Positions 4,944-54,924 of a DNA stretch of 64,000 bases are shown in pieces. The notes beneath the pieces were generated by a model, which was not told the DNA's origin, did not search any database, and was given only the letters and a program-made list of their open reading frames with translations. How positions within the stretch are numbered: the stretch's first letter is position 1; each line of letters begins with the position of its first letter. The DNA is from Escherichia coli (GTDB taxonomy: Bacteria; Pseudomonadota; Gammaproteobacteria; Enterobacterales; Enterobacteriaceae). The DNA lies in assembly GCF_009931435.1 (NCBI RefSeq), contig NZ_CP043414.1. One strand, written 5' to 3'. Both the position numbers and the translations under genes were made by a program.

Positions 4944-5489
4944 GTGGACGATTTGACCGCACAAGCCCTGAAAGATTTTACTGCACGCTACTGCGATGCG
5001 TGGCATGAAGAGCATAAAAGCTGGCCGTTAAGTGAGGAACTGTACGGCGTTCCTTCACCGTGCATTATTTCAACCACCGAAGACGCTGTATACTGGCAAC
5101 CCCAGCCGTTTACCGGTGAACAAAATGTAAACGCGGTTGAACGTGCTTTTGATATTGTGATACAACCCACGGTTCATACTTTTTACACGACCCAGTTTGC
5201 CGGGGATATGCACGCGCAGTTTGGCGATATCAAACTGACATTGCTGCAAACCTGGAGTGAAGACGACTTCCGTCGGGTGCAGGAAAATCTGATTGGTCAT
5301 CTGGTGACTCAGAAAAGGCTAAAACTGCCGCCCACGCTATTTATCGCAACGCTGGAAGAAGAGTTAGAGGTCATCTCGGTGTGTAATCTCTCCGGTGAAG
5401 TGTGCAAAGAGACGCTGGGAACACGCAAACGGACGCATTTAGCCTCAAATCTTGCGGAATTCCTTAATCAACTTAAGCCTCTTCTGTAA
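4944..5489 (+). CDS. syd: SecY-interacting protein Syd
   Basis: 181-aa [46 protein letters not shown]...; GTG start at 4944. Confidence 0.9.
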
Positions 5490-5699
5490 TCCAAATACCC
5501 CATCTTGTTGTGAGAGATCTCTTACAGACTCTGTAGGAGATCGCCAGGAAATAAGCGAATACTTAAAAAGATAAGAATCGTTATTTTCATTTAAAATCAA
5601 TATATTGCTTGTTAATTCTTAACTTTCATATGAAATTTTCCTTAAGGCATTGTCTGTAAGCGCCTTGTAAGACTTCGCGAAAAAGACGATTCTATCTTC

Positions 5700-6066
5700 G
5701 TCGACAGGGAGTCAGACAACGAAGTGAACATCAGGATGATGACACTTCTGAAGGACACACCAGGAGGGTGTTTCAGGGAAAGGCTTCTGGATGAAGCGAA
5801 GAGGATGACGCAGGACGCGTTAAAGGACACCTCCAGGATGGAGAATGAGAACCGGTCAGGATGATTCGGTGGGTCAGGAAGGCCAAGGACACTTCAGGAT
5901 GAAGTATCATATCGGGGTGGTGTGAGCAGGAAGCAATAGTTCAGGATGAACGATTGGCCGCAAGGCCAGAGGAAAAGTTGTCAAGGATGAGCAGGGAGCA
6001 ACAAAAGTAGCTGGAATGCTGCGAAACGAACCGGGAGCACTGTGAATACAGTGCTCCCTTTTTTTA
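5700..6066 (+). ncRNA. csrB: CsrB small RNA (CsrA-sequestering)
   Basis: Starts GTCGACAGGGAGTCAGACAACGAAGTGAACATCAGGATGATGAC...; about 18-20 reiterated CAGGA(U/A)G / AGGA motifs across about 360 nt; ends in hairpin GGGAGCACTGTGAATACAGTGCTCCC plus T8 (6031-6066); no long ORF in the region. Confidence 0.93.
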
Positions 6067-6110
6067 TTCCTGCTATCCTTCGCGGCAGTTTTTCTTATTG
6101 AGGTTGCTTT

Positions 6111-6440
6111 ATGACCACTCATGACCGCGTTCGTCTCCAGTTGCAGGCGCTTGAAGCGTTACTGCGTGAACATCAGCACTGGCGAAACGATGAACCCCAG
6201 CCGCATCAATTTAACAGTACCCAACCGTTCTTTATGGACACCATGGAACCACTGGAGTGGTTGCAGTGGGGGCTGATCCCGCGAATGCACGATTTGTTAG
6301 ATAATAACCAGCCATTACCGGGCGCTTTTGCTGTTGCACCCTATTATGAAATGGCGCTGGCGACGGACCATCCGCAACGCGCGCTTATTCTGGCTGAGCT
6401 GGAAAAACTGGATGCTCTTTTTGCGGATGATGCGAGCTGA
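6111..6440 (+). CDS. yqcC: DUF446-family protein YqcC
   Basis: 109-aa ORF MTTHDRVRLQLQALEALLREHQHW...; GAGG RBS at 6100-6103; stop overlaps the truC start. Confidence 0.85.
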   Translation: MTTHDRVRLQLQALEALLREHQHWRNDEPQPHQFNSTQPFFMDTMEPLEWLQWGLIPRMHDLLDNNQPLPGAFAVAPYYEMALATDHPQRALILAELEKLDALFADDAS

Positions 6441-7222
6441 TGCTGGAAATAATCTACCAGGATGAATGGCTGGTTGCGGTAAATAAACCCTCCGGCTGGC
6501 TGGTTCACCGCAGCTGGCTGGATCGCGACGAGAAAGTAGTGGTCATGCAAACCGTGCGTGACCAGATTGGTCAGCATGTATTTACCGCGCATCGGCTGGA
6601 TCGACCGACGTCCGGCGTATTGCTGATGGGACTATCCAGCGAGGCCGGACGGCTGTTGGCACAACAGTTTGAACAGCACCAAATCCAGAAACGTTACCAT
6701 GCGATTGTGCGCGGCTGGCTGATGGAAGAGGCTGTGCTGGATTATCCGCTGGTGGAAGAACTGGACAAAATCGCTGATAAATTCGTCCGCGAAGATAAAG
6801 GTCCACAGCCAGCGGTGACACATTATCGCGGTCTGGCGACCGTAGAAATGCCTGTAGCGACCGGACGTTACCCGACTACGCGCTACGGTCTGGTGGAACT
6901 GGAGCCGAAAACAGGACGCAAGCATCAGCTCCGTCGCCATCTTGCCCACTTGCGCCATCCGATTATTGGCGACAGCAAACATGGTGATTTACGTCAAAAT
7001 CGTAGCGGTGCTGAACATTTTGGCCTTCAGCGGTTAATGCTGCATGCCAGTCAGTTGTCATTGACACATCCTTTTACTGGCGAGCCGTTGACTATTCACG
7101 CGGGCCTGGACGGCACCTGGATGCAGGCGTTATCACAATTTGGCTGGCGGGGTCTGCTTCCTGAAAATGAAAGGGTTGAGTTCAGTGCGCCATCGGGTCA
7201 GGATGGAGAGATAAGTTCCTAA
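6440..7222 (+). CDS. truC: tRNA pseudouridine(65) synthase
   Basis: 260-aa [27 protein letters not shown]... with RluA-family pseudouridine synthase motifs (HRLDRPTSG); start overlaps yqcC stop (TGATG). Confidence 0.92.
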
Positions 7223-7239
7223 TCCAGGGAGAAAACGGT

Positions 7240-7689
7240 ATGGCGGAAATTGGTATTTTTGTGGGCACAATGTACGGAAATTCGCTGTTAGTGGCGGAAG
7301 AAGCGGAAGCAATTCTGACCGCGCAGGGCCACAAAGCAACGGTATTTGAAGATCCTGAATTAAGCGACTGGCTGCCCTATCAGGATAAGTATGTTCTGGT
7401 GGTTACGTCCACGACCGGGCAGGGCGACCTTCCTGATAGCATTGTGCCGCTCTTTCAGGGAATTAAAGATACCCTGGGCTTCCAGCCGAATCTGCGTTAT
7501 GGCGTGATTGCGCTCGGCGACAGTAGTTATGTGAATTTCTGCAATGGCGGCAAACAGTTCGATGCCTTGTTGCAGGAACAGAGTGCGCAGCGGATAGGGG
7601 AAATGCTGCTGATTGACGCCAGTGATAACCCGGAACCGGAAACGGAATCAAATCCGTGGGTCGAACAGTGGGGCACGCTGTTGTCCTGA
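7240..7689 (+). CDS. yqcA: flavodoxin-like FMN protein YqcA
   Basis: 149-aa [26 protein letters not shown]... (flavodoxin fold signature). Confidence 0.88.
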
Positions 7690-8108
7690 AAAATTGCCGT
7701 TTTAAGCAAACTGAATCGAATCTTTTCAGGCAAATGCCAGTAAAAACTGCTTCATAGCGCGGATTTTTACTGGCGTTTGCCTGGAGTCAAGCGATCCATT
7801 TCATACTCTTCTTTATTTCTTCGTTTTAATCCTTCCTTTCTTGTTCTTGTTTTCATTTCCGTGAAGTGGATTCCACCGTCCAGGGCTAATGCCAAAATCG
7901 GGCCTCATTGAACGCATTAATGTTGTGTTGTTGCACGGTGAGCCGCTATGGCGCGCTTTTTATACTGCTATTGCCAGATATAAACACGCGCCGTATTCGG
8001 CGAACGACCTATAAAAACGGCAAAAAACACCCTACGTCACCTCTGATTTCCTGGCGATGTCGCAGTCCAGAGTGAGCGTGGCTAACGCGAATTTTCAGGA
8101 GTGCAACA

Positions 8109-9461
8109 ATGAGTTCTTTAAGTCAGGCTGCGAGCAGTGTGGAAAAACGCACGAATGCTCGTTACTGGATAGTGGTGATGTTGTTTATCGTCACATCCTT
8201 CAACTACGGCGACCGCGCTACGCTCTCTATCGCCGGTTCGGAAATGGCCAAAGATATCGGCCTTGATCCTGTGGGAATGGGCTATGTGTTCTCTGCTTTC
8301 TCATGGGCTTATGTTATCGGGCAGATCCCTGGTGGCTGGTTGCTGGACCGTTTTGGTTCAAAACGCGTCTACTTCTGGTCGATCTTTATCTGGTCGATGT
8401 TTACCTTGCTGCAAGGCTTCGTCGATATCTTTAGTGGATTCGGCATTATCGTTGCCCTGTTTACGCTGCGCTTCCTGGTCGGGCTTGCTGAAGCGCCATC
8501 TTTCCCCGGTAACAGTCGCATTGTAGCGGCCTGGTTTCCGGCGCAGGAAAGGGGAACTGCAGTGTCTATTTTTAACTCCGCCCAATACTTCGCAACGGTG
8601 ATCTTCGCGCCGATTATGGGCTGGCTGACTCATGAAGTGGGTTGGTCACATGTCTTCTTCTTCATGGGCGGTCTGGGCATTGTCATCAGCTTTATCTGGT
8701 TGAAAGTCATCCATGAGCCAAATCAACATCCGGGCGTAAATCAGAAAGAGCTGGAGTACATCGCCGCGGGTGGTGCGCTGATCAATATGGATCAGCAAAA
8801 TACCAAAGTTAAAGTGTCGTTCAGCGTGAAGTGGGGGCAGATCAAACAGCTGCTCGGGTCACGGATGATGATCGGCGTTTATATCGGTCAGTACTGTATC
8901 AACGCCCTGACTTACTTCTTCATTACCTGGTTTCCGGTTTATCTGGTGCAGGCACGCGGGATGTCGATTCTGAAAGCGGGCTTTGTGGCTTCCGTACCGG
9001 CGGTTTGCGGTTTTATCGGCGGCGTGTTGGGGGGGATTATTTCAGACTGGCTGATGCGCCGCACAGGTTCGCTGAACATTGCGCGTAAAACACCGATCGT
9101 GATGGGCATGTTGCTATCAATGGTGATGGTGTTCTGTAACTACGTCAACGTTGAGTGGATGATCATCGGCTTTATGGCGCTGGCCTTCTTCGGTAAGGGC
9201 ATTGGGGCGCTGGGTTGGGCAGTAATGGCAGATACCGCGCCAAAAGAGATCAGCGGTCTTTCCGGTGGCCTGTTCAATATGTTTGGTAACATTTCCGGTA
9301 TCGTCACGCCAATCGCAATTGGTTATATCGTTGGCACGACTGGCTCCTTTAATGGGGCGCTGATTTATGTTGGTGTTCATGCCCTAATCGCGGTACTGAG
9401 CTACCTGGTGCTGGTGGGCGATATCAAGCGTATCGAGCTGAAACCTGTCGCGGGGCAATAA
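8109..9461 (+). CDS. gudP: glucarate/galactarate MFS transporter
   Basis: 450-aa [27 protein letters not shown]..., 12-TM MFS profile; CAGGAG RBS at 8096-8101. Confidence 0.92.
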
Positions 9462-25688: not shown

Positions 25689-26621
25689 TTACCAGCGCCC
25701 GGAGGCGCCACCGCCGCCAGATGAACCGCCGCCGCCGCTGAAATTATCATTGTCAAAAGAGGATGAAGAGGAAGATGACGACGATGATGAAGAACGCCAG
25801 GAGGCCGAGTTACTTCTTTCGTAGCGTGACGGTCGGTTGGCACTGCGCATCGAATCCCGAACCTTTTTGCCGAAGGGGGTAAAAGCGATAGCGACAGCCA
25901 GGAACGGTGTGGCGAAGCAGAGTAATGTTGCGAGTACTCCCCAGCTTCCGCCGAAACCTGCTATAGGTAAAACAAAGGCCAGTACAATAGCTGTGAAGCA
26001 AATTAGTCCCAGCGTTTTGAAATATCCTCTGGCGGAAATAAAGGTCAGTACTATTGCCCAGACTAACAAAGCCCACCAACCGCTAAAGGGCAAAGGGTGA
26101 TCGGTCGGTGTTATCGTTGCTAAATTATTCCCCGTCAGACGATTATCAATATCGCTTATTCCCTTTTGCAAGCCGCCAGCAAGGTCGCCATTTTTAAATG
26201 CCGGAATAATACTGTTGCGAATAATTTTCCCGGACTGCGCATCCGTAATAACGCCTTCCAGTCCGTAACCGATTTCAATACGCACGGTATGATCCTGCCA
26301 GGCGACTAACAGTAGAACGCCATCATCGCGGTCTTTATCACCCGGTTTCCAGCTATCGAATACCCGCGTAGCGTACTGCTCGATGGTTTCATCGCCCGTT
26401 GTTTCAACCACTAACACGACCAGTTGTGCGTGGCTTTTTTGCGTCAGCTCTTTAATCTGATTGGTCAAAGTATTTACTTCATCGTTCGTCAATTTACCGG
26501 TTAAGTCATTCACATACCTGGGTGATTCAGGCACTGGAATTTGTATGGCAAACACAGATGAACAAAAGAAAGCCATAAGGAAGATAAAATTTCGCACAGG
26601 ACTTCCTCGCTTAATGAGCAT
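25689..26621 (-). CDS. TPM-domain membrane protein, paralogue 3
   Basis: 310-aa ORF; shares identical stretches with paralogue 1 (TIEQYATRVFDSWK); C-terminal poly-Ser then GGGGSSGGGGASGRW; start codon uncertain (ATG at 26621 overlaps lemA by 11 nt; an internal Met before the signal peptide is possible). Confidence 0.75.
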   Translation of the reverse strand: MLIKRGSPVRNFIFLMAFFCSSVFAIQIPVPESPRYVNDLTGKLTNDEVNTLTNQIKELTQKSHAQLVVLVVETTGDETIEQYATRVFDSWKPGDKDRDDGVLLLVAWQDHTVRIEIGYGLEGVITDAQSGKIIRNSIIPAFKNGDLAGGLQKGISDIDNRLTGNNLATITPTDHPLPFSGWWALLVWAIVLTFISARGYFKTLGLICFTAIVLAFVLPIAGFGGSWGVLATLLCFATPFLAVAIAFTPFGKKVRDSMRSANRPSRYERSNSASWRSSSSSSSSSSSSFDNDNFSGGGGSSGGGGASGRW

Positions 26622-32710: not shown

Positions 32711-32885
32711 AGGTCTCTAGTAATTGCAATAAGAAATAACATGGAAAGCAGGGGGGTTGTGTGAGAGTAGTCACGCTTCTGCTTTTTAAAATTATTTGAT
32801 AATACGAATATCACACTGTGATTACGATCACATTAGCGCTTATGCCCTTATGCTAAAAATTATCTCCAGTTACCAGAGATAATGA

Positions 32886-54828: not shown

Positions 54829-54924
54829 GTTACCCGTTCTTTAAAAATAAGGAAATGTTTGAATTTAGTTGGTAGATTGTTGATGTGGAATAAAATTGTT
54901 TAAAAACAGATACGTATGCTTAGT
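54829..54924 (+). promoter_or_regulatory. CRISPR leader of the cas2-proximal array
   Basis: AT-rich 96 bp; AGTTGGTAGATTGT at 54868-54881, 43 bp upstream of the first repeat. Confidence 0.8.

Follow-up and report, generated by a model that had tools for sequence, protein, structure and literature searches.

Introduction

Operator spacers in which the length is fixed and the sequence is free are known from phased or looped complexes, including araO2-araI and the lac and gal operator pairs. At the RNA level, Peters and colleagues reportedly proposed in 2012 a model that places the Rho loading (rut) site beyond a 3′ stem-loop with a protective role. In Escherichia coli, Rho-dependent 3′ ends were described as a stable stem-loop without a U-tract, followed by sequence in which C exceeds G; Rho terminates transcription downstream, PNPase and RNase II trim the RNA to the hairpin, and REP elements can act as the protective hairpin (Dar & Sorek, 2018; PMC6061677).

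A polypyrimidine tract between yqcA and gudP of E. coli is compared here with these systems. The whole intergenic region, tract included, drives a CdaR biosensor with 168-fold glucarate induction, and the biosensor papers use the region undissected (PMC4551912). No paper naming gudP together with yqcA was found in a literature search. The tract was analysed within a stretch of 64,000 nucleotides of E. coli DNA, referred to below as the window.

In common with the Rho-dependent 3′ ends of Dar & Sorek, the locus has an operon-end hairpin without a U-tract, followed by G-poor, unstructured sense RNA, and in other genera REP hairpins are present at the equivalent position, as their model describes. 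Classical rut sites, however, are C-rich, whereas this tract is 60 % U and only 25 % C; rut sites also need no exact length, whereas the spacer that forms the core of the tract is fixed at 41 or 42 bp. With the looped operator pairs of ara, lac, and gal the locus shares an invariant length, a free sequence, and a box-to-box distance of 155 ± 1 bp, one lineage being shorter by about one helical turn; it differs from them in that the flanking sites are putative and the upstream half is absent in about half of the genera.

Position and composition of the tract

The tract lies between yqcA (flavodoxin; 7240-7689, + strand; b2790 in K-12), which is the final gene of the yqcC-truC-yqcA run, and gudP (glucarate/galactarate transporter; 8109-9461, + strand), where the first-pass annotation had placed it. 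Both coding sequences are present in the open reading frame (ORF) list and in the K-12 annotation, and csrB (5709-6068), yqcC, truC, yqcA, and gudP are all on the + strand. An Rfam search of 5000-9000 (E ≤ 1) returned CsrB, at 5709-6068, as the sole match. Of 5426 complete E. coli genomes, 5425 have the 419-bp intergenic region at 95-100 % identity, and it carries no annotated features in K-12 or in the best-matching RefSeq records.

Several length differences and rearrangements are seen around this region. Directly after the yqcA stop codon, 15 bp of K-12 are missing here (window 7690-7700 versus K-12 2922534-2922510), and among Escherichia lineages the intergenic length ranges from 419 to 443 bp, with the variation entirely upstream of the yqcA hairpin. 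A search of the 3 kb downstream of yqcA gave no gudP homologue in E. albertii, C. braakii, and several other species (loci L012, L013, L016, L018, L020, L053, L064, L070, and L072), and in one further locus (L014) an insertion of about 2 kb separates the two genes; the yqcA-gudP junction is thus a site of rearrangement. Just past the yqcA stop codon, CTGAATCG (7712-7719) is conserved in many genera and has a presumed likeness to the left half of the Cra (FruR) consensus GCTGAATCGATTCAGC.

The sequence at 7801-7860 is identical to that quoted in the first-pass annotation, and its estimate of about 85 % pyrimidine holds: there are 36 T, 15 C, 6 A, and 3 G, giving 51 pyrimidines out of 60. This is the greatest purine/pyrimidine skew in the 64 kb on either strand, whether windows of 40, 50, 60, 70, or 80 nt are used, and the maximal-scoring skew segment is 7795-7860. 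The binomial probability of at least 51 pyrimidines in 60 is 1.5e-8 per window, or about 0.002 expected occurrences in 64 kb on both strands, and among 200 simulated sequences of 64 kb (first-order Markov model) the highest count was 49 out of 60 (mean 45.4, sd 1.2). Because it is beyond both expectations, the pyrimidine skew at 7801-7860 exceeds chance. The tract is of low complexity, containing TTCTT four times and TTCTTG twice in tandem, although there is no tandem repeat array. It is a real and statistically unusual low-complexity spacer, the pyrimidine-rich form of which is restricted to Escherichia. Other compositional extremes of the window are a purine-rich run beginning AAAAGAGGATGAAGAGGAAGATGACGACGATGATGAAG at 25755-25804 (+ strand) and a 60-nt stretch at 54840-54899 (− strand) with 14 C and no G.

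The hairpin at the end of yqcA

The 3′ stem-loop of yqcA (7725-7785, + strand) has a predicted RNA folding energy of −39.1 kcal/mol (z = −8.9), with a 26-bp stem in E. coli. The full E. coli stem is followed by GTCAAGCG and has no U-tail; the tail is GUCAAGCG after the full stem and GUUUGCC after the inner stem. When tested as an intrinsic terminator, the yqcA hairpin has the stem and lacks the U-tract, and a simple scanner makes no terminator call.

Only the inner stem, at about 7735-7775, is conserved across genera, with modest covariation (0.176 versus 0.143 in shuffled alignments, reached by 2 of 500 shuffles). The outer 10 pairs of the E. coli hairpin are unpaired in most other genera, in which GTTTTCAT stays free as a tail. 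The Escherichia tail, GTTTGCCTGGA, forms part of the lengthened stem, and no U-tract is left.

A spacer of fixed length between conserved blocks

To place the tract in an evolutionary setting, 80 orthologous yqcA loci from across the Enterobacteriaceae were compared, most of which have gudP downstream. At a fixed distance past the hairpin there is a block, GTCAAGCGATCCATTTCATACTC (7786-7808; block 1), which is conserved in 31-33 species with the consensus GTCAAGCGAyC..TTTCAyACTC. A second conserved block (block 3; 7850-7876) consists of TTTTCATTTCCGTGAAG (7850-7866) and then TTCCAC, and has a CGTGAA core at 7860-7865; neither block is assigned a strand. Between them runs a 41-bp spacer (7809-7849, + strand), which makes up the core of the polypyrimidine tract.

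In all 31 species with both blocks the spacer is either 41 bp (13 species) or 42 bp (18 species), its length being fixed and its sequence free: it is conserved within Escherichia only and is unalignable between genera. The first-pass annotation had named a lack of conservation in orthologous intergenic regions as the outcome that would speak against its proposal, and for the sequence of the tract this is largely what is found. The pyrimidine fraction of the spacer ranges from 0.52 to 0.85 in the 31 species, being 0.83-0.85 in Escherichia, 0.83 in C. koseri, 0.76 in Salmonella, 0.73 in Raoultella, and 0.52-0.57 in Phytobacter and Kosakonia; the Leclercia spacer is visibly pyrimidine-rich. On the sense strand, C exceeds G in 28 of the 31 species and T exceeds A in the same number.

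About 35 further species, including Enterobacter, the C. freundii group, Lelliottia, Buttiauxella, and Cedecea, lack block 1 and the spacer and have a REP-like hairpin directly upstream of the CGTGAA core. In these loci (L010, L025, L031, L035-L040, and others), the REP-like palindrome GCCGGGTAAGGCG..GCCGCCACCCGGC stands between yqcA and the core in place of the native yqcA hairpin, block 1, and the spacer, and is followed by a short C/A-rich, G-poor stretch. In all, about half of the Enterobacteriaceae genera examined lack the whole module and have a REP element there instead. Among the species with REP-like hairpins C also exceeds G, in 34 of 35. The trait that the species have in common is therefore the G-poverty of the sense strand, and neither the sequence nor the pyrimidine richness; the tract is the Escherichia version of a fixed-length, free-sequence spacer between the yqcA hairpin and the gudP control region.

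The two blocks do not behave as the arms of an RNA stem. Although a 10-bp stem can be drawn between blocks 1 and 3 in E. coli, 78.7 % of cells are paired across species versus 77.6 % in shuffled alignments, with 130 of 500 shuffles reaching the observed value, and only the invariant TTCAC/GTGAA core pairs. No conserved RNA structure was found with RNAalifold. Given this absence of covariation, the blocks behave as DNA sites. On the minus strand, block 1 reads TGTGA-N6-TCGCT in most genera, with TATGA in Escherichia, and is weakly CRP-like. Against a CRP weight matrix made from 40 sites measured at Kd ≤ 10 nM, block 1 scores 1.1-7.6 bits (2.7 in E. coli), versus at least 9.8 for all 40 measured sites; the conserved GTGA...TCNC pattern is suggestive of CRP, though the matrix match is weak.

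Stronger CRP-like sites are present elsewhere in the window. ATGGTGATTTACGTCAAAAT, at 6981-7000 inside truC and about 240 bp upstream of yqcA, is CRP-like with 16.3 bits, the second best score in the 64 kb, and the best CRP-like site (32815-32834, 17.0 bits) matches the sequence of the published ygcW/yqcE CRP site. A promoter-like match on the minus strand (TTGACT-16-AAAAAT, 7790..7763) overlaps block 1 and the right hairpin arm; the CRP-like site would be centred about 41 bp upstream of its start, in class II geometry, and the match would fire antisense into the yqcA hairpin and yqcA. On the plus strand, the promoter scanner found no promoter within the tract.

The gudP control region

From the CGTGAA core onwards, the gudP control region is shared throughout the family. 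The core precedes TGCACGGTGAG by exactly 72 nt in 67 of 67 species, and for block 3 the distance from its start to GTTGCACGGTGAG, further downstream, is 80 nt in every case found. In 67 of 68 species a palindrome, GGGCTTATGCC, precedes TGCACGGTGAG by 49 nt; its arms are conserved and its centre varies. These exact spacings of 72, 80, and 49 hold across 67-69 Enterobacteriaceae species. In E. coli the palindrome (box II; GGGCTAATGCC, 7883-7893, strand unassigned) has GGC and GCC arms around a variable 4-nt centre and lies some 85 bp ahead of the presumed start of gudP; it is a candidate for an operator of the CdaR type, and its best matches are in the cdaR and gar control regions. A similar GGC-N4-GCC palindrome, GGCAAATGCC (box I; 7729-7738, likewise without a strand), is in the left arm of the yqcA hairpin and is also a candidate operator; its GC....GC columns are invariant in alignment A2. 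Box I and box II stand 154-156 bp apart in 23 of 30 species and 146 bp apart in Salmonella, about one helical turn less.

The box core GCAWWTGC is found in the garP-garD intergenic region (locus L082, 7039 and 7081, within 7034-7093) and upstream of cdaR (locus L083, 2401, within 2396-2413). There are four exact matches in 947 bp of regulatory DNA, versus about 0.1 expected from the density elsewhere, for a motif that was defined post hoc. On this comparison of sequences, the GGC-N4-GCC palindrome common to gud, gar, and cdaR is a candidate CdaR operator.

Further downstream, AATGTTGTGTTGTTGCACGGTGAG (7919-7942, no strand assigned) is a block of invariant columns in alignment A1. Judged by its position, it is probably where an activator binds, across the −35 region and with its centre some 41 bp ahead of the inferred start. 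The putative −10 hexamer of gudP is TATACT (7961-7966, + strand), the only conserved −10-like hexamer, TTATACT being invariant across genera. With TATACT taken as the −10, gudP would start near 7973 and the tract would span roughly −172 to −113. Inside the putative gudP 5′ leader is a perfect GC-rich hairpin, CGCCGTATTCGGCG (7989-8002, + strand), which was flagged by the scanner as terminator-like on the minus strand; this hairpin is possibly a pause point for RNA polymerase, at most 150 nt from the candidate rut site described below.

Possible Rho entry downstream of yqcA

The preferred reading, held tentatively and at somewhat under even chances, is that Rho enters at the tract and thereby shields the gudP promoter from read-through out of yqcA, with the length of the spacer separately constrained at the DNA level. 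Transcribed in the sense of both genes, the tract would give about 65-80 nt of untranslated, unstructured, G-poor, and pyrimidine-rich RNA. Lying directly past a stable stem-loop without a U-tail, this RNA would serve as a Rho loading site, and Rho would release the polymerases that pass the weak yqcA terminator within a further 50-150 nt, ahead of the CdaR-dependent gudP promoter or on it. The RNA would afterwards be shortened by exonucleases as far as the hairpin that protects it. The outcome would be that gudPXD stays off without inducer and that its promoter is kept clear of incoming polymerases. Transcription through the hairpin and the action of Rho are steps that we infer from the arrangement of the locus.

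Several observations are consistent with Rho entry. The tract begins 1-10 nt past the −39 kcal/mol hairpin without a U-tract. The RNA of 7795-7860 is predicted to be unstructured, with a minimum free energy of 0 kcal/mol. Using the RhoTermPredict description of rut sites (78 nt, C/G > 1, spaced C, and a downstream hairpin; PMC6407284), the best candidate window of 78 nt is 7785-7862 (+ strand), which runs through block 1 and the spacer into the first part of block 3. It contains 19 C and 7 G (C/G 2.71), with six C at 11-13 nt spacing, and agrees with the published description. The base criteria are permissive, since 12 % of + strand windows pass them; when a C/G ratio of at least 2.5 is demanded, only 0.10 % of + strand windows pass. 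The 60-nt tract, with its 15 C versus 3 G, ranks among the highest 0.08 % of all windows of that size, both strands counted.

The excess of C over G in the spacer is not a signal unique to it. On the sense strand the tract has C > G, opposite to the yqcA coding flank, where G exceeds C, while the gudP coding flank is unskewed; the skew is +0.38 at the spacer end, +0.16 in the core, and +0.25 in the promoter and untranslated region, versus −0.11 and 0.00 in the coding flanks. As C exceeds G all along the intergenic sense strand, the spacer stands at the far end of a general trend, and the argument from C > G has been downgraded. Within Escherichia, loss of the free GTTTTCAT tail coincides with the strongest tract, a correlation that comes from a single lineage; no clear trend between U-tail quality and tract strength was seen across genera beyond it.

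Rho entry would require RNA that is transcribed and free of ribosomes; the tract is past the yqcA stop codon and outside any conserved ORF. In the Term-seq tables of Adams (2021) the csrB 3′ end is present and there is none between rlmD and csrB, which suggests that expression of the operon was below what could be scored. The RhoTermPredict supplements list nothing close to the tract.

Alternative explanations

Because a rut site needs no exact length, the 41/42-bp invariance points to an additional constraint at the DNA level. This could be the whole explanation, in that the tract could be purely a phasing spacer setting the distance and helical phase of block 1 and box I relative to block 3, box II, and the promoter, within a multi-protein activation complex of CdaR and perhaps CRP. 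Composition would then be incidental, or selected only for a stiff duplex without competing sites. Such a spacer accounts well for a length that is kept in 31 of 31 species despite unalignable sequences, for the box-to-box distance with its one-turn change in Salmonella, and for the exact downstream spacings; the boxes shared with the gar and cdaR control regions, the absence of RNA covariation between the blocks, and the glucarate induction driven by the whole region with the tract inside it are all in keeping with it. It leaves unexplained, however, a strong strand-specific bias that several genera show again, each with another sequence. About half of the genera have no block 1, box I, or spacer yet keep the core, and the module is thus unneeded for basic gudP control. 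In addition, protein binding at the flanks is putative, block 1 is a weak CRP match, and the box motif was defined after the data had been seen. Phasing as the sole role is the main rival of Rho entry, judged credible but somewhat unlikely.

Rho entry and phasing may also be combined. The tract would then be a composition-constrained linker in a previously undescribed, exactly spaced gudP activation module, acting as a DNA ruler for CdaR and CRP and as an RNA entry site for Rho, with GGC-N4-GCC as the CdaR operator. Taken together, these propositions are considered unlikely.

A functionless remnant of low complexity, left by a decayed terminator tail or by replication slippage of TTCTT-like units, with transitions preserving the pyrimidines, is more doubtful still. 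It is in agreement with the end of sequence conservation at the genus boundary, with the short internal repeats, with the loss of the module in many genera, and with the finding that four of the five variable spacer positions in six Escherichia lineages are pyrimidine-to-pyrimidine transitions. Nevertheless, 85 % pyrimidine over 41-60 nt is far beyond neutral expectation, and the absence of indels argues for constraint. In spacers that are saturated and unalignable, transversions should have erased any inherited bias, and its recurrence in C. koseri, Salmonella, Raoultella, and Leclercia therefore counts against neutrality.

H-DNA requires a long uninterrupted homopurine/homopyrimidine mirror repeat, and intrinsic curvature requires A/T tracts phased at about 10-11 bp. 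The first-pass annotation had proposed that the strand asymmetry could form H-DNA or curved DNA and so contribute to the regulation of gudP. The tract shares its 85 % asymmetry with H-DNA mirror repeats and its T-rich, promoter-upstream position with curved A-tract DNA and UP elements, but the resemblance ends there. The 60 nt are broken up by nine purines. The longest stretch of pyrimidines alone, at 7830-7842, covers 13 nt, a length that six other places in the window equal or surpass with runs of 13-16 nt, and mirror symmetry extends no further than arms of 8 nt (7807-7814 and 7816-7822). At 10-11 bp the A/T tracts show a spectral power of 0.00-0.06; they follow one another at uneven distances of 4-13.5 bp, and T4 length is attained by just two runs, 26 bp apart. 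From the inferred start, the tract is 113-172 bp upstream and out of UP-element contact range, and it is unconserved beyond Escherichia. An intramolecular triplex or a bend that modulates the gudP promoter is therefore very improbable. What stands of the earlier proposal is that a role in gudP regulation is possible, since the tract is inside the conserved architecture upstream of gudP; the structural mechanism is unsupported.

Least credible of all is that the tract is part of a gene product, either a small protein (44 aa on the + strand; 42 or 29 aa on the − strand) or a small RNA: ORFs are present at 7777-7911 (+) and 7767-7895 (−), the + frame is open in six Escherichia lineages, and the minus strand has the promoter-like match, but ORF length ranges from 2 to 86 aa in other genera, the change between 41 and 42 bp of spacer puts the ORF out of frame, the minus-strand ORF is cut short by a premature stop in E. 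coli E69, the starts are TTG or are without a usable Shine-Dalgarno sequence, and the tract has no Rfam match, no consensus RNA structure, and no annotation in K-12 or RefSeq. A conserved small protein on either strand was rejected as a candidate, as the ORFs are not kept open or in frame in related genera.

Implications for the yqcA-gudP region

If the tract is a Rho entry site, the locus would be another case of a weakly terminated housekeeping operon that is insulated from a tightly inducible neighbour. Loss of the U-tail and gain of Rho entry would apparently have taken place in the same lineage, matching the terminator switching of Dar & Sorek (PMC6061677). If the combined reading is true, the order of the module would be box I, hairpin, CRP-like block 1, 41/42 bp, block 3, box II, and promoter, and the same 85 bp would serve both DNA and RNA roles.

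As the CdaR glucarate biosensor carries the whole region, trimming or inverting the tract could alter its background signal. The exact spacings and the GGC-N4-GCC boxes amount to a concrete proposal for the CdaR operator of the gud, gar, and cdaR promoters. The stakes are modest, and the most useful by-product of the analysis is the exactly spaced gudP architecture with its candidate shared operator.
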